Under the pieces are notes generated by a model. The model was not told where the DNA came from, ran no database searches, and saw only the letters and a program-made list of their open reading frames with translations. From a phage: a stretch of 64,000 nucleotides of DNA. The stretch lies in the sequence record PV467749.1; one strand, given 5' to 3'. The translations under genes and the position numbers were made by a program. Shown here piece by piece: positions 24,346 to 59,670 of the stretch (positions are counted from its first letter, which is position 1; each line of letters begins with the position of its first letter).

Positions 24346-24373
24346 ATTATACAGTACTGAATGAGTTTGTCAA
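24346..24373 (-). promoter_or_regulatory. sigma70-type promoter
   Basis: Minus sense TTGACA-aactcattcagtactg-TATAAT (16-nt spacer). Confidence 0.7.
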
Positions 24374-24374
24374 C

Positions 24375-24755
24375 TCAAAATAAATTCATTTCATGTGCGT
24401 ATTGTGGTTCAAGATGCGATAAGTTTTTGAAGCTTTCTTTCAACTCAGCATCATCTACATACACCGTGCCTGGTACATTCCCCATAGTGAAACCTACCCA
24501 CACAGTCATGTCACCAGTCCCTAAGCGTGGCATTGATAGCGAACCATCAGGTGAAACATCAAACGCTACACTGAAGTCATCAGTAACAACGTCAGAACCA
24601 TTTTCGAGAATAATACATCCACTATCTTTAAGCTTCTGAATGTGGATAGCAGCCTCTACAGCACGTTTGAAGTTATAGTAAGACTCTTTATCCTCAAACA
24701 TTGATTGTTTAATCAGACGCTTGTTTAGCTCGGTTACTTTGTGCATTTGACGCAT
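24375..24755 (-). CDS. hypothetical protein
   Basis: 126 aa ORF on the minus coding strand. Confidence 0.6.
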   Translation of the reverse strand: MRQMHKVTELNKRLIKQSMFEDKESYYNFKRAVEAAIHIQKLKDSGCIILENGSDVVTDDFSVAFDVSPDGSLSMPRLGTGDMTVWVGFTMGNVPGTVYVDDAELKESFKNLSHLEPQYAHEMNLF

Positions 24756-25012
24756 TACTTATCCATCTCCCACAGTTGTAGAATTTCATAAGAGCCTGGT
24801 GGTGCTGGATTCCTGATCTCAGGGAATTGAGTACTTTTAGGATTTCCACCAGCATTAAATTCGTCAAGTAATGATTCCAGTTCGCGACGATCCTGAACAA
24901 CATAAACACAATCACCTGAACCTTCTTCGAGAATCATTTCACTTCCTGCACAATCCCATACTGTTGAGATACATAGAATCTCTTTTGTATTTTTATTACG
25001 CAATGCAAACAT
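24755..25012 (-). CDS. hypothetical protein
   Basis: 85 aa; 1-nt overlap with the downstream gene. Confidence 0.6.
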   Translation of the reverse strand: MFALRNKNTKEILCISTVWDCAGSEMILEEGSGDCVYVVQDRRELESLLDEFNAGGNPKSTQFPEIRNPAPPGSYEILQLWEMDK

Positions 25013-25020
25013 AGCACCCC

Positions 25021-25365
25021 CTATCGATTTGGCATTTTATCTCGTAATCTAATGAGATAATCAACCACAGACCATGTTGAAATGAAAGTGATATAAGTAC
25101 CGAAGAATCCTACCAGAATAAAGGCAACAAGTGTACTCCCATTTGGATCTTCAGCTTTAATACCGATGATACCATCAAATACAGTGAAAAATGTAGACAT
25201 ACACGTTAAACAGATGTACATCACCAATAAGAATTCATGTTTCAATGATGGATATAAACGGTCAAAGAGTTTATAAAATTTAAAGTACAGTAGGAGTATA
25301 CCAACAAAGACATAGAAAGTAAACAGTGTTGTTATGATATATGATATTAAATTTAAATTATACAT
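25021..25365 (-). CDS. small multi-TM protein, family A member
   Basis: LYFKFYKLFDRLYPSLK; tail RLRDKMPNR; start moved to ATG 25365 (ggag SD). Confidence 0.7.
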   Translation of the reverse strand: MYNLNLISYIITTLFTFYVFVGILLLYFKFYKLFDRLYPSLKHEFLLVMYICLTCMSTFFTVFDGIIGIKAEDPNGSTLVAFILVGFFGTYITFISTWSVVDYLIRLRDKMPNR

Positions 25366-25366
25366 C

Positions 25367-25708
25367 TCAACGCTCCGGTAGATTATCACGTAATGTTTTG
25401 ATTCGATTATACAATTTCATTGCTACATTTCCAAATAAACCAAAACCCATTACTAAAATGTATGCGATGATCATAGTAATAATTACAATAGTACCTAGAC
25501 TGTAATGTACTGCACTGATACCCATTATTGTTTCTACAATGATGTGAGCAACAGAAATAATCAAAAGTACTACTACAATTGGATGATTTGGATACATTCG
25601 GTTAAACAATGTTTTGTACTTAAAGAAGTACAGTACTCCACCAAATAAGAAGTACACAATGTAGATTGATGCAACTGCATAAGCAAACGCATTAGTGTAA
25701 AAAATCAT
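25367..25708 (-). CDS. small multi-TM protein, family A member
   Basis: LYFFKYKTLFNRMYPNH; tail LRDNLPER. Confidence 0.7.
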   Translation of the reverse strand: MIFYTNAFAYAVASIYIVYFLFGGVLYFFKYKTLFNRMYPNHPIVVVLLIISVAHIIVETIMGISAVHYSLGTIVIITMIIAYILVMGFGLFGNVAMKLYNRIKTLRDNLPER

Positions 25709-25717
25709 TATCAATCC

Positions 25718-26056
25718 TTACTTTTCAGGGATTTTATTACGCCACTCATCGATGCGATGAAGCAGTTTAAAGAGCAAAAATATCGGAACAGTAGCTATCA
25801 TAGTAGCAATTGTTAGTAATGTCAACACCGATACGAGATTTAATTCGTCAGTACTATATCCACATACCAGTGCTTCAATTATCCCCCACGTACATACACT
25901 GAACATCAAAAATGAAATTGGTGCATCGTAGTATATGCGTTGATACAAGGTCGTGTATCGGAAGAATGCAATAATGTAACAAAACATGTAATACACCCAA
26001 ATTAACGATACTACATAAAATGATACCTTATTAATTAATTCAAAATGATGTTCCAT
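25718..26056 (-). CDS. small multi-TM protein, family A member
   Basis: AFFRYTTLYQRIYYDAP; tail WRNKIPEK. Confidence 0.7.
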   Translation of the reverse strand: MEHHFELINKVSFYVVSLIWVYYMFCYIIAFFRYTTLYQRIYYDAPISFLMFSVCTWGIIEALVCGYSTDELNLVSVLTLLTIATMIATVPIFLLFKLLHRIDEWRNKIPEK

Positions 26057-26065
26057 TTTTACCCC

Positions 26066-26341
26066 CTACATATATTCTAAGAATAATGTATTAGCTTCGT
26101 CTATGTTCTTAAGATAATACATGTAATACAGATTTGGTTGTCCGTCTTTTGAACTCAAATCAAAGTACTTTAAACTATGCACCTTCATGACAAAAACAAA
26201 TAATGACTTAAAACCAATCTCACCGTACTTAATAAACAGTTCATCTAAATGAATGTAACTCTTAGTTTCAGATAATTCCTTCACATCATCTTCAATTTCT
26301 TGTAAGCGAAGTTTACCGATTAAGTTTTCAAATGAACGCAT
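26066..26341 (-). CDS. hypothetical protein
   Basis: Start moved to MRSFENL (aaggaac SD); avoids overlap with the upstream stop. Confidence 0.6.
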   Translation of the reverse strand: MRSFENLIGKLRLQEIEDDVKELSETKSYIHLDELFIKYGEIGFKSLFVFVMKVHSLKYFDLSSKDGQPNLYYMYYLKNIDEANTLFLEYM

Positions 26342-26352
26342 GATGTTGTTCC

Positions 26353-26766
26353 TTATGCTGGTACACAATTTTTTATAATGAATACACGTTTCATGAATGA
26401 ACTTTCATATACGTACTTCAGTTTACCATTTTCACGCATACGATGAAACACATCTTTACCGCTAGTACTCCATGTTGAACCAGTCTCTGCATCAACATTG
26501 TTCATTACACCAGATGTTACATTCACCCCGTACTTGAAGCTAAAGGTACTACCTTCTTCTACTAGAGGGATTGGTGTACTACGTTCATGTTCCAGTACAA
26601 GTTTACTGCCGATGATGTTGTACGAAGTTAGCTTGCATTTTAAAACACCCATCTCTTGTGCAGTTGGGTAATTCTTCTCAAATAAATCAGATACTTCATT
26701 TGCATAACAAACTGAACTAATCATAAGAAGTAATGAACTGATAGAACGGAAAATAACTTTTAACAT
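26353..26766 (-). CDS. secreted small protein (signal peptide, two-Cys family)
   Basis: N-terminus MLKVIFRSISSLLLMISSVCYA; Cys near the mature N-terminus region and at KNCVPA. Confidence 0.65.
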   Translation of the reverse strand: MLKVIFRSISSLLLMISSVCYANEVSDLFEKNYPTAQEMGVLKCKLTSYNIIGSKLVLEHERSTPIPLVEEGSTFSFKYGVNVTSGVMNNVDAETGSTWSTSGKDVFHRMRENGKLKYVYESSFMKRVFIIKNCVPA

Positions 26767-58486: not shown

Positions 58487-58647
58487 TTTCGTACCATTAT
58501 TTCAATAAAGAACCACGGATACACTTCATGATTCATAAGTTTATCGTATTCTGCTGGGTCTGATATGATTTCCCAATGATATTTTCGCCAACTACCGATA
58601 CCCGAATATCTAAAATTAATGTCATTCATCCATTCTTCATGCGTCAT
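58483..58647 (-). CDS. 54-aa MTHEEW-family protein
   Basis: MTHEEWMNDINFRYSGIGSWRKYHWEIISDPAEYDKLMNHEVYPWFFIEIMVRK; about 70 percent identical to the next copy. Confidence 0.6.
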   Translation of the reverse strand: MTHEEWMNDINFRYSGIGSWRKYHWEIISDPAEYDKLMNHEVYPWFFIEIMVRK

Positions 58648-58668
58648 GGTTTAACCTTTAATTAAAAT

Positions 58669-58750
58669 TGGCCCAGGCGACAGGACTCGAACCTGCATAC
58701 TCCAGTTACTCGATTAACGACGATTTAGAAGACCGTTGAGATACGCCCGG
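58669..58750 (-). tRNA. aberrant tRNA-like element (candidate anticodon UCU; no normal D arm)
   Basis: 82 nt, CCA encoded. Good acceptor (CCGGGCG/CGCCTGG), T arm (GCAGG-TTCGAGT-CCTGT) and ACGGT-CTTCTAA-ATCGT hairpin. Only 7 nt lie between the acceptor and anticodon stems, and there is a 23-nt variable region. Confidence 0.4.
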
Positions 58751-58754
58751 ATTT

Positions 58755-58844
58755 TGGCGGTGAAGGTGAGATTTGAACTCACGGAGGACTTTCACCCTCG
58801 ACGGTTTTCAAGACCGTTGCATTAAACCACTCTGCCACTTCACC
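58755..58844 (-). tRNA. tRNA-Ser (UGA)
   Basis: 90 nt, CCA encoded; GGTGAAG/CTTCACC; ACGGT-CTTGAAA-ACCGT; variable arm GAGGG-TGAAAGT-CCTCC; GTGAG-TTCAAAT-CTCAC. Confidence 0.85.
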
Positions 58845-58887
58845 AGTACTAATAATTATATCACATCTTTATAGTCTGTTCCAATAT

Positions 58888-59160
58888 TTATGATTCGGTT
58901 TCGGGATTAAATTTTATAAATTCATCTTTATGTTCATCTTCAATTGCAATATCTTCTACGTCTTCAGGCCAGATTGTGGTGTCCCCTTGGTAGAAGCGAT
59001 AGTTATCGAATTCTGCACTACGTGTTCTTCCCTGTTCCCAACCAATAGTACAGTCATGATATACATCACCACTACGTGTACGAATGCTTATTGAGTCTTG
59101 TGTTTCATAAAGAACGTCAATGCGTGTGTTACGATTTGTATTGAATTTTTCAAAATGCAT
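58888..59160 (-). CDS. hypothetical protein
   Basis: Start moved to MHFEKFNT (gggga SD). Confidence 0.6.
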   Translation of the reverse strand: MHFEKFNTNRNTRIDVLYETQDSISIRTRSGDVYHDCTIGWEQGRTRSAEFDNYRFYQGDTTIWPEDVEDIAIEDEHKDEFIKFNPETES

Positions 59161-59181
59161 AGTAATCCCCAATAACAATTG

Positions 59182-59400
59182 TTATTCTTGTGGTTTAGTT
59201 ACACCAACACCAATAATACTTTTAATATCAATATGGATATTAGCAAGTTCATTACTGTCAAACGGGTTAGTTTCAGTTACAACAACAGTGGTGTCATTAA
59301 CTAAAACTACTGAACCTTTTACACGGTATCCCTGAAGGAGTACTTGTACATTGTCACCAGCGTTTAATGAGTTAATAACTTCTAATAGAGTAGATTCCAT
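59182..59400 (-). CDS. hypothetical protein
   Basis: 72 aa. Confidence 0.55.
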   Translation of the reverse strand: MESTLLEVINSLNAGDNVQVLLQGYRVKGSVVLVNDTTVVVTETNPFDSNELANIHIDIKSIIGVGVTKPQE

Positions 59401-59410
59401 TTTATTTTCC

Positions 59411-59608
59411 TTACGGTTTACTATTTTTACGTTTTTCTGATTCGGGTACAGTTTTCATTTCACCAATACATAGTTCCATGATGAGTACACCTTTGTCATT
59501 ATAACGTACTACATCTTCAATGTCAAAATGTCTCGCACTATGAACAACTTCAATACATGCATCATCGGGATATGATTCCAATAATGCTACAAGTTCTGCT
59601 TTAGTCAC
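59411..59608 (-). CDS. hypothetical protein
   Basis: GTG start after gaggaa; 65 aa. Confidence 0.55.
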   Translation of the reverse strand: MTKAELVALLESYPDDACIEVVHSARHFDIEDVVRYNDKGVLIMELCIGEMKTVPESEKRKNSKP

Positions 59609-59642
59609 TTTGGATTCCTCGTAGGTTTATTTATCTGAAGTG

Positions 59643-59670
59643 ATTATAGCAAAAATACTGAGGTTGTCAA
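59643..59670 (-). promoter_or_regulatory. sigma70-type promoter
   Basis: Minus sense TTGACA-acctcagtatttttgc-TATAAT. Confidence 0.7.

Follow-up and report, generated by a model that had tools for sequence, protein, structure and literature searches.

The spacer word shared by the consensus promoters of this phage is not promoter-specific but genome-wide: its core, the six-base palindrome AGTACT with preferred flanks C and G, ranks first in over-representation across the entire genome and the clade (about 9-fold, or approximately one copy per 350 bp). The window, by which we mean the whole stretch of 64,000 nucleotides analyzed, shares 99% identity with Escherichia phage fEgEco12 and about 87% with 121Q and, judged from its sequence, is from an Asteriusvirus-type jumbo myovirus with E. 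coli as the host group.

A preliminary description had named six minus-strand promoters, and all six were recovered in place and with the sequences described, including the (C/T)AGTACTG spacer end in five of them (59643-59670 lacks it). The pattern TTGACW-N16/17-TATAAT has 10 matches in the window, 10 of 10 on the minus strand, compared with 0.31 expected from shuffles (largest value, 3); four of them (39821-39849, 47313-47340, 54660-54687, and 59498-59526) add to the original six. A further variant at 56943-56971, with TGGACA as its −35 hexamer, carries the same word next to its −10 and is the sixth word-bearing promoter. Every match scoring at least 11/12 within 44-64 kb is on the minus strand, and the perfect and near-perfect sigma-70 matches are all co-oriented with genes. 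The promoters are as follows.

24346 to 24373, minus strand: TTGACA-N16-TATAAT, spacer end tCAGTACTG, AGTACT at −19 to −14; predicted start at about 24339, then a 5′-UTR hairpin, GAGGA, and ATG at 24299; 121Q differs at a single base, in the 5′ portion of the spacer
35211 to 35238, minus strand: TTGACA-N16-TATAAT, spacer end gTAGTACTG; Shine-Dalgarno (SD) sequence and ATG at 35163; one substitution relative to 121Q, neither in the hexamers nor in the word
39173 to 39200, minus strand: TTGACA-N16-TATAAT, spacer end tCAGTACTG; SD sequence and ATG at 39079
39821 to 39849, minus strand: consensus promoter without AGTACT, from the pattern scan; diverged in 121Q
47313 to 47340, minus strand: consensus promoter without AGTACT, from the pattern scan; conserved in 121Q
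54660 to 54687, minus strand: consensus promoter without AGTACT, from the pattern scan
56943 to 56971, minus strand: TGGACA-N17-TATAAT with aAGTACTGa and a canonical TGn extended −10; directly upstream of tRNA-Ser(GCT), whose first base is the predicted start (56936); the aligned 121Q counterpart has TTGACA, and another 121Q copy reads AGTACTTGACTAAATAGTTCAGTACTGATATAAT
57702 to 57730, minus strand: TTGACT-N17-TATAAT with cAGTACTGa and a canonical extended −10
58124 to 58151, minus strand: TTGACT-N16-TATAAT; its first 22 nt are the first 22 nt of 57702-57730; identical in 121Q
59498 to 59526, minus strand: consensus promoter, from the pattern scan, with the one-off variant TAGTACG in its spacer
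59643 to 59670, minus strand: TTGACA-N16-TATAAT without AGTACT; GAGGA and GTG at 59608

An SD sequence and an ORF follow 28 to 125 nt downstream in 9 of these 11 promoters, and the general layout is one of short promoter/5′-hairpin/SD cassettes placed before small ORFs and tRNA genes. The two tRNA-region promoters at 57702-57730 and 58124-58151, described earlier as near-identical copies, indeed have TTGACTAAATAGTTCAGTACTG in common, exactly. Nine promoters can be aligned with 121Q, and eight of them have the same hexamers there (one −35 base differs at 56943; 39821 has diverged); two others lie in unaligned sequence. By sequence, orientation, placement, and conservation, the sites look like sigma-70-type early promoters. 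The minus-strand block that contains them is made up of small orphan ORFs together with tRNAs and a phage sigma-factor gene, the presence of which supports the view that the block is early or serves host takeover.

41594 to 42559, minus strand: gene for a phage sigma-70-family factor (Pfam Sigma70_r2, 2.6e-09; Sigma70_r3, 1.3e-11), whose homologues are annotated as sigma factors in fEgEco12 and 121Q
54301 to 58844, minus strand: tRNA region with Thr, Asn, Ser(GCT), Ser(TGA), a weak fifth tRNA, and a group I intron, predicted to be served by the AGTACT-bearing promoters at 56943, 57702, and 58124

The relative CBB has 18 predicted RpoD-like promoters, 11 of which are grouped in exactly this kind of region (PMC5259590). 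The earlier proposal that the minus-strand block is early and dependent on host RNA polymerase (RNAP) is well supported, albeit only indirectly, by this combination of co-oriented promoters, downstream genes, conserved hexamers, gene content, and the CBB cluster.

Within the early promoters, AGTACT takes two registers, one at −19 to −14 relative to the −10 hexamer and one that touches or overlaps the −35; about 20 bp separates the two, which lie on one helix face. The chance of finding AGTACT at one register in at least 5 of 10 promoters is about 5e-11 at the raw AGTACT density and about 6e-7 when conditioned on TG at that place. The complete genome of TH47, a close relative, has 32 such promoters; AGTACT begins precisely 7 nt ahead of TATAAT in 10 of them and 8 nt ahead of it in one more, with 0.08 expected per offset, and the dense early region of that genome has AGTACTTGAC/AGTACTTGCA and TTGACAGTACT arrangements. 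A Klebsiella phage from a different genus has the same two-site architecture upstream of a tRNA, and pairs of AGTACT sites 20 to 23 bp apart are in mild excess (26 versus 9.6 expected). Compared with 121Q, the word is intact in six of six word-bearing promoters while the remaining spacer varies. Several of the promoters are probably related by cassette duplication, so that independent events are fewer than sites. Further, the word is carried by only one of six sigma-70-like promoters in the Klebsiella phage and by none of 15 in PHA46, both more distant relatives, their genome-wide excess notwithstanding; the clade as a whole therefore does not require the word in its promoters.

The excess itself extends along the entire window.

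1 to 64000, no strand assigned: AGTACT palindrome, 184 copies, 37 of them as CAGTACTG, evenly spread at 8 to 16 per 4 kb

The expected counts are 20 for AGTACT and 0.96 for CAGTACTG; across the whole of TH47, AGTACT occurs 917 times versus 104 expected. The preferred base at −1 is C. Most copies lie in ORFs, including those of the plus-strand block at 1-18.8 kb, with codon phases of 72/27/51 in the window and 34 further copies in intergenic or boundary positions. Within window ORFs there are 150 copies, compared with 43 ± 5.6 when synonymous codons are shuffled and 27 when the codon order is shuffled. Because all three phases are used and the excess over shuffling persists, the excess is at the DNA level rather than the codon level. 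It is also symmetric between strands relative to transcription and is found under both gene orientations. Density is higher in intergenic than in coding sequence (4.6 versus 2.6 per kb in the window; 4.0 versus 2.5 in TH47), and host DNA has 0.22 copies per kb versus 2.6 to 2.9 in phage DNA. In TH47, one 8.4-kb domain has a strand-polar AGTACA in place of the palindrome.

In a comparison of a phage pair, 72.6% of AGTACT sites are intact versus 47.3% for all hexamers, with a six-base footprint of conservation (identity of 0.92 to 0.93 versus 0.85 to 0.88 in the flanks) and a third-codon-position identity of 0.869 within AGTACT versus 0.735 outside. The replicate pair, CBB versus GAP32, kept 71% of AGTACT sites versus 42.5%. 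These substitution patterns in two independent phage pairs show purifying selection on AGTACT at the DNA level. Observed/expected counts are 112/16 in CBB, 114/11 in RaK2, 114/14 in GAP32, 54/4.7 in the Klebsiella phage, 105/10 in PHA46, and 51/7 in Serratia BF; the excess is absent from PA5oct (3 observed/14 expected) and Vibrio phage 2.275.O (5/8). It is thus present in five lineages of enterobacterial jumbo phages, namely four named genera plus Salmonella phage PHA46, and is common to the enterobacterial Rak2-like jumbo phages examined.

In the plus-strand block, eight intergenic hairpins fit a CAGTAC...GTACTG search.

948 to 967, plus strand: terminator-like hairpin GCCAGTACT-tg-AGTACTGGC followed by a T-run
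4519 to 4536, 5770 to 5791, 9306 to 9324, and 11800 to 11819, plus-strand block: CAGTAC...GTACTG hairpins
15724 to 15742, 16946 to 16965, and 18833 to 18853, plus-strand block: CAGTAC...GTACTG hairpins

Seven of the eight are paralogous copies between tandem RCC1-like genes (5770-5791 differs), and they are therefore not independent events.

The preliminary description had suggested that the spacer word may be an operator, a suggestion that is partly supported. The word is palindromic, occupies a sharply defined position within the RNAP footprint, and does not vary between phages; what does not hold is its restriction to promoters, as it is genome- and clade-wide with mostly coding copies, and no DNA-binding regulator that could be its cognate turned up among 20 window ORFs scanned with Pfam. 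The explanation that we tentatively favor, at somewhat less than even odds, is that a phage factor recognizes AGTACT throughout the genome and, in doing so, also gates early promoters. AGTACT would then be bound by a sequence-specific reader of double-stranded DNA that is peculiar to the clade and is most likely a phage protein acting genome-wide as a symmetric dimer. Its occupancy between and beside the hexamers would compete with the sigma-70 holoenzyme, and the same factor would therefore switch early promoters, most likely off once it had accumulated. Against this, about 86% of AGTACT sites lie in ORFs, where a promoter role is impossible, and the promoter copies, about 1% of all sites, could be incidental. 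The AGTACA domain of TH47 also counts against a simple symmetric binder, which does not predict it.

It is possible, but rather unlikely, that AGTACT is selected for sheer density in the genome, for example as a mark distinguishing phage from host DNA, that it has no regulatory role, and that its promoter copies spread through cassette duplication. Selection for density would gather the word in free sequence (spacers, hairpin stems, and synonymous positions), and the higher intergenic density, terminator stems made of CCAGTACT/AGTACTGG, the low density in host DNA, and the genome-wide excess without the promoter word in distant relatives are all in keeping with it. The promoters also lie in repeated cassettes with a similar downstream hairpin and SD sequence, like the PeSL cassettes of T4-type phages (PMC4122927). 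However, the register is too sharp (10 of 32 TH47 promoters at one offset versus about 0.08 at genome density), the word stays invariant while adjacent spacer bases change, and most terminators in 44-64 kb lack it. Further, promoter flanks outside the hexamers and the word are unlike each other, and hence the promoters are not simple copies. We consider it improbable that host RNAP itself reads the word, as an extended −10/spacer and −35-proximal element that strengthens the promoter with no extra factor. The TG of AGTACTG does form the canonical TGnTATAAT, but only in the 17-nt-spacer promoters 57702 and 56943; in the majority, with 16-nt spacers, it is shifted from that register by one base. 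The final T of AGTACT is often also the first T of TTGAC/TTGCA, yet the word is missing from half of the equally perfect promoters, and about 900 copies inside genes are left unexplained. In extended −10 promoters, TG is a known polymerase contact, whereas AGTAC is not.

Slightly less probable again is an epigenetic switch, in which a phage DNA methyltransferase would modify AGTACT. The spacer copy would carry full methylation in the virion but be hemi- or unmethylated once the DNA had replicated, so that the activity of early promoters would be linked to parental DNA before its replication. Targets of type II methyltransferases are typically six-base palindromes, heavy methylation of RaK2 DNA has been reported (PMC3622015), and relatives encode adenine and cytosine methyltransferases (PMC11895373 and PMC5259590). 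The complete TH47 genome, on the other hand, has only one ORF with amino-methyltransferase motifs, a 174-aa member of the Dam family (PF05869, 3.5e-33), and C5-methyltransferase motifs were not found in it. To our knowledge, enzymes of the Dam family are GATC-specific or nonspecific. Moreover, methylation alone gives no ground for a 9-fold excess, and substitutions at lost AGTACT sites have no deamination bias. Control by host LexA or another host factor is very improbable. It comes into consideration because TACTGTATAA, contained in the AGTACTGTATAAT of the promoters at 24346, 35211, 39173, and 58124, resembles the left half of the LexA SOS box, the consensus of which is TACTG(TA)5CAGTA; however, the second half (ACAG eight bases past CTGT) is absent from the five word-bearing promoters of the preliminary description, and the genome-wide word is CAGTACTG rather than CTGT-N8-ACAG.

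Among known systems, the closest are the T4-type PeSL early promoters (Arbiol et al. 2010, PMC2839356; Comeau et al. 2014, PMC4122927) and, grouped with them, the predicted RpoD-like promoters of CBB and GAP32 (PMC5259590), which share the near-perfect TTGACA-N16/17-TATAAT with an A-rich upstream tract, the clustering among many small, variable, co-oriented ORFs, and the repeated short regulatory cassettes with a stem-loop and an SD sequence. The available portions of these papers make no mention of an AGTACT word. Unlike those promoters, the present ones have a fixed six-base palindrome in the spacer and at the −35 edge, and their stem-loop is usually downstream, in the 5′ UTR, rather than upstream of the promoter.

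Transcription factor 1 (TF1) of SPO1, an abundant DNA-binding protein encoded by the phage, has a preference for phage DNA and binds at sites that overlap early promoters. The proposed AGTACT reader would resemble it as a phage protein with many genome sites, those at early promoters repressing early transcription, although TF1 discriminates via hydroxymethyluracil and not via a short over-represented word. Genome-wide words with dedicated readers include Chi (RecBCD), the DNA uptake sequences of Neisseria and Haemophilus, and KOPS (FtsK), with which AGTACT has in common strong, frame-independent over-representation, even spread, clade conservation, and a large contrast with foreign DNA. Those words are 7 to 12 nt long, strand-polar or orientation-dependent, and found in cellular genomes with known readers, whereas AGTACT is a six-base palindrome with a polar form, AGTACA, only in one TH47 domain. 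AGTACT is also the ScaI site and resembles a type II restriction-modification target in being a six-base palindrome, a form that symmetric dimers read; such targets are avoided in phage genomes, whereas AGTACT is enriched, and no methyltransferase or nuclease gene matching it was seen. We infer that AGTACT is a genome-wide signal that also occupies fixed places in early promoters, rather than a private operator of these promoters, and that, if the proposed reader exists, the word would be operator-like in that limited sense only.

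What is new in this region is a positioned, genome-wide palindrome, AGTACT; the promoters that carry it are of a known kind. Over an 8-kb piece, the window shares 99.3% identity with Escherichia phage fEgEco12 and ~87% with the jumbo myoviruses 121Q and PBECO4, of the genus Asteriusvirus. A plus-strand block (1 to 18.8 kb) consists of tandem RCC1-like genes, and a long minus-strand block holds ~100 small ORFs, mostly orphan, together with a sigma-70-family factor gene, four or five tRNA genes, and a group I intron:

1-18850, plus strand: tandem RCC1-like paralogues, ~15 genes of ~375 to 450 aa.
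41594-42559, minus strand: phage sigma-factor gene; regions 2 and 3 were found by Pfam, region 4 was not.
About 40934-41593: gene-poor stretch of ~660 bp between the sigma-factor gene and g520, directly downstream of the former.
56433-56747, minus strand: full-length group I catalytic intron (Rfam RF00028, 99 bits), with tRNA-Ser(GCT) and tRNA-Asn on either side.
58672-58750, minus strand: borderline fifth tRNA (Rfam 29.3 bits, at the gathering score; no ARAGORN call).

Most of the RCC1-like genes are followed by an intergenic cassette made up of a terminator hairpin (GCCAGTACT-tg-AGTACTGGC), a T-run, aaatatagTATAATgaataaaggagg, and a start codon. In protein sequence the sigma factor is only 59% identical to its 121Q and PBECO4 counterparts, against ~87% identity of the DNA around it. 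The gene-poor stretch lacks a long ORF, is without gene annotation in fEgEco12, and contains two AGTACT sites; it may represent a regulatory region, a decayed gene, or a non-coding RNA. As 121Q has tRNA-Met and another tRNA-Ser at the place of the intron, the latter may lie within a tRNA gene missed by ARAGORN.

The preliminary description listed six minus-strand sites of the form TTGAC(A/T)-N16/17-TATAAT, and all six (named here by left coordinate: 24346, 35211, 39173, 57702, 58124, and 59643) read exactly as described. The list was incomplete, since a pattern search returned 10 matches in the window, all on the minus strand (0.31 expected), so that four had been missed; a variant site was also found:

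39821, 47313, 54660, and 59498, minus strand: further matches in the TTGACW-N16/17-TATAAT search.
56943-56971, minus strand: promoter variant with TGGACA as its -35 hexamer and the same spacer word.

Five of the six original sites, and 56943 in addition, finish the spacer in (C/T/A)AGTACTG, as had been noted for the five. Hexamers and spacing are those of sigma-70 promoters (TTGACA, TATAAT, 16 to 18 bp), with consensus scan scores of 11 to 12 out of 12, and all 13 sites in 44-64 kb with at least 11 of 12 matches lie on the gene strand. A loose 9/12 scan gave no enrichment over shuffles (91 versus 99.7), and only the top-scoring class is informative. The promoters lie upstream of, and co-oriented with, minus-strand genes; 9 of 11 are followed within 28 to 125 nt by a Shine-Dalgarno sequence and an ORF, and for 56943 transcription is predicted to begin at the first base of tRNA-Ser(GCT). 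Compared with 121Q, the hexamers and AGTACTG are unchanged in all six word-bearing promoters except for one -35 base (56943 has TGGACA in the window and TTGACA in 121Q), and the remaining changes are confined to the 5' part of the spacer.

The proposal that these are early, host-type promoters is consistent with the evidence throughout, so far as sequence can tell, and agrees with predictions for phage CBB and with the promoter/stem-loop cassettes (PeSLs) of T4-type phages. In CBB, 11 of 18 predicted RpoD-like promoters are grouped in a region made up of short hypothetical ORFs and including a sigma-factor gene (PMC5259590). The promoters are ordinary in themselves and add mapped candidates to a class for which this phage group already had predictions. 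At their 5' end, immediately ahead of the Shine-Dalgarno sequence, early transcripts are predicted to carry a short G/C-clamped hairpin (e.g., GGGATGA-acttc-TCATCCC), seen at 24300-24340 (minus strand) in the window and at 91-106 kb in TH47 (MT446416.1), the complete 352-kb genome of a close relative, and repeated in many cassettes. PeSLs, which combine an early promoter, a stem-loop, and a Shine-Dalgarno sequence, are repeated in hyperplastic regions of small ORFs (PMC4122927); cassettes of promoter, hairpin, and Shine-Dalgarno sequence recur in the TH47 early region and at 24346, but here the hairpin lies downstream of the promoter, whereas the PeSL stem-loop lies upstream (PMC4122927).

The spacer word itself extends far beyond the promoters. 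AGTACT is the most overrepresented hexamer in the window (184 copies versus 20 expected), CAGTACTG occurs 37 times against 0.96 expected, and C is favored just outside the core on each side independently. The copies are spread evenly (8 to 16 per 4 kb) through both gene orientations, and whole TH47 carries 917 versus 104 expected; ~86% of copies in the window and TH47 are inside ORFs, and the 34 intergenic copies in the window amount to 4.6 per kb versus 2.6 per kb in coding sequence. By codon phase (1, 2, and 3), the window ORFs hold 72, 27, and 51 copies. These 150 copies compare with 43 +/- 5.6 after synonymous-codon shuffling and 27 after codon-order shuffling, and the excess is therefore a DNA-level feature; codon or peptide bias is ruled out by its survival of the shuffles, its presence in all three phases, and the intergenic copies. 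The same excess (observed/expected) was found in unrelated regions, structural and replicative, of CBB (Pectobacterium, 112/16), RaK2 (Klebsiella, 114/11), GAP32 (Cronobacter, 114/14), a second Klebsiella phage (54/4.7), PHA46 (Salmonella, 105/10), and BF (Serratia, 51/7), but not in the more distant PA5oct (3/14) or Vibrio phage 2.275.O (5/8). A 50-kb sample of E. coli K-12 has 0.22 AGTACT per kb, the phage density being ~12 times that. Because the excess recurs across unrelated parts of independent genomes that came from different laboratories, recent repeats and an assembly artefact are ruled out.

Phages usually avoid palindromes; the enrichment of AGTACT is the opposite. In its strong, frame-independent overrepresentation and its conservation across a clade, the word resembles genome-wide words with dedicated readers, such as Chi, DUS, and KOPS. 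It differs from them in lacking strand polarity, being palindromic with half-words symmetric with respect to transcription; a polar variant in a single TH47 domain is the exception. We found no description of the AGTACT or GCGC word features in the literature on these jumbo phages (RaK2, GAP32, 121Q, Asteriusvirus). In PA5oct, the excess of CTGCA/TGCAG is 3-fold, too modest to be a comparable parallel.

Where the window was aligned with 121Q (38 kb, 84.8% identity), the share of intact sites is 72.6% for AGTACT versus 47.3% for all hexamers. Identity is 0.92 to 0.93 at the six word positions and 0.85 to 0.88 in the flanks, and third codon positions are 0.869 identical inside the word versus 0.735 outside. 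A second pair, CBB and GAP32, replicates the conservation of sites (71% versus 42.5%). Gains of the word are about as frequent as losses, and lost and gained sites have no C-to-T bias, which does not support a mutational hotspot or decay by deamination. By these comparisons, the AGTACT sites are subject to measurable purifying selection.

At promoters the word is precisely placed. The strict promoter pattern occurs 32 times in TH47, 31 of them on the minus strand; the distance from the start of AGTACT to TATAAT is exactly 7 nt in 10 of the 32 and 8 nt in one more, with ~0.08 expected per offset. Nearly every AGTACTG(N)TATAAT in that genome, with few exceptions, has a -35-like hexamer at the right distance, and AGTACT is therefore no substitute for the -35. 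In the dense early region of TH47 there is a second register, in which AGTACT either shares the first T of the -35 (AGTACTTGAC or AGTACTTGCA) or follows the -35 (TTGACAGTACT); this -35-proximal copy lies ~20 bp from the spacer copy. Both 121Q and a Klebsiella phage from another genus have the two-site arrangement upstream of tRNA genes as well, and AGTACT pairs 20 to 23 bp apart are mildly enriched (26 versus 9.6). A further copy, at 58845-58850 (minus strand), separates a -10-like TATAAT (58855-58860) from the first base of tRNA-Ser(TGA), a third register at the predicted transcription start.

The preliminary description proposed that the spacer word may be an operator. The word is indeed palindromic and holds a fixed register within the RNA polymerase footprint, at -19 to -14 and at or overlapping the -35, but each promoter copy is one of ~900 individually maintained copies, and since the window holds 184 copies and TH47 holds 917, the word is not restricted to regulated promoters. 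Pfam detected no DNA-binding regulator domain in the 20 window ORFs scanned. The operator idea needs rewording. A sequence-specific AGTACT reader that acts genome-wide and, where its sites fall in promoters, affects initiation would cover both facts; we hold this reading tentatively, at a little short of an even chance, and its factor is wholly hypothetical. The main rival, which we judge somewhat less likely, is that promoter copies reflect incidental filling of free sequence together with cassette duplication. Such duplication clearly occurs in the TH47 early region, and elsewhere sigma-70-like promoters mostly do without the word (0 of 15 carry it in PHA46 and 1 of 6 in the Klebsiella phage). 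Eight aligned two-site promoters, however, are invariant only in TTGAC, AGTACT, and TATAAT, and hence are not simple copies of each other.

A direct effect of the word on RNA polymerase, through the TG of an extended -10 (TGnTATAAT, TG at -15/-14), is unlikely. That motif is present in 57702 and 56943, but the TG is in the canonical register only with 17-nt spacers, which these two have; in 24346, 35211, 39173, and 58124 it directly abuts TATAAT. A methylation switch at AGTACT is weakly supported, as TH47 encodes only a single small adenine methyltransferase of the Dam family and lacks a C5 enzyme:

48196-48720, minus strand: amino-methyltransferase ORF (motif NPPY), the only one in TH47; 174 aa, Pfam Dam (PF05869), just below the TIGR01712 cutoff.

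C5-methyltransferase motifs are absent from the TH47 genome, and an AGTACT-specific methyltransferase is unsupported by its gene content; several methyltransferases have been reported in Sharanji and CBB, unlike TH47. Nor does AGTACT behave as a restriction-modification target, being ~9-fold enriched rather than avoided. Of a LexA (SOS) box, CTGT-N8-ACAG, only the left half (TACTGTATAA) is present. A sense-strand RNA motif is unsupported in the window, where CAGTAC/GTACTG and AGTAC/GTACT are about equal on sense and antisense strands, and the promoter copies lie upstream of the predicted transcription start. The word is not a general terminator element: the paralogous repeats between genes of the plus-strand block use it, as do a few other terminators, but most terminator-like hairpins between 44 and 64 kb are without it.

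Two AGTACT-free stretches of TH47, outside the window (71774-80217 and 82631-87593, ~20 small ORFs each), do not fit the proposed genome-wide reader. They are conserved, being AGTACT-free also in a relative (locus L019, 12312-20598 and 23031-28030) that is 88% identical over the matched stretch. In the first island, the non-palindromic AGTACA occurs 48 times on the sense strand versus once on the other, in all three codon phases, and CAGTACA occurs 22 times against 1.0 expected; the second has nine AGTACA copies of opposite polarity. Either a reader that is sensitive to orientation or some need to keep the full palindrome out of these islands may lie behind this pattern.

A second word is missing altogether. 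GCGC is absent from the window (32 expected), from whole 352-kb TH47 (201 expected; loci L009-L016), and from every other AGTACT-rich locus of the clade (L002-L004, L006-L008, and L017), and is at normal frequency in PA5oct (47/49) and Vibrio phage 2.275.O (43/35). In the 50-kb sample of E. coli K-12 it occurs 7.1 times per kb, about every 140 bp. GATC (~0.55 of expected) and GGCC (~0.4) are also depleted. AGTACT excess and GCGC absence covary across the ten phage genomes examined, which may reflect a single evolutionary event because all carriers may form one clade. The absence of GCGC suggests a conserved GCGC-specific nuclease, possibly phage encoded. A bolder conjecture, and a quite improbable one, is that RaK2-like jumbo phages distinguish self from non-self by word usage, with phage proteins reading both words: one would destroy or silence GCGC-bearing host DNA, and another would mark, organize, and temporally regulate phage DNA through AGTACT, which would become strand-polar AGTACA in one conserved domain. 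AGTACT at early promoters would then be the point at which the genome-wide reader turns off early transcription.

The AGTACT palindrome is remarkable for occurring at ~9 times its chance frequency, in every frame, with measurable purifying selection, and in five enterobacterial jumbo-phage lineages, namely the genera Asterius-, Mimas-, Alcyoneus-, and Eneladusvirus and phage PHA46. If a reader protein exists, it would offer a handle on how nucleus-less jumbo phages discriminate their own DNA from that of the host and time their early transcription.
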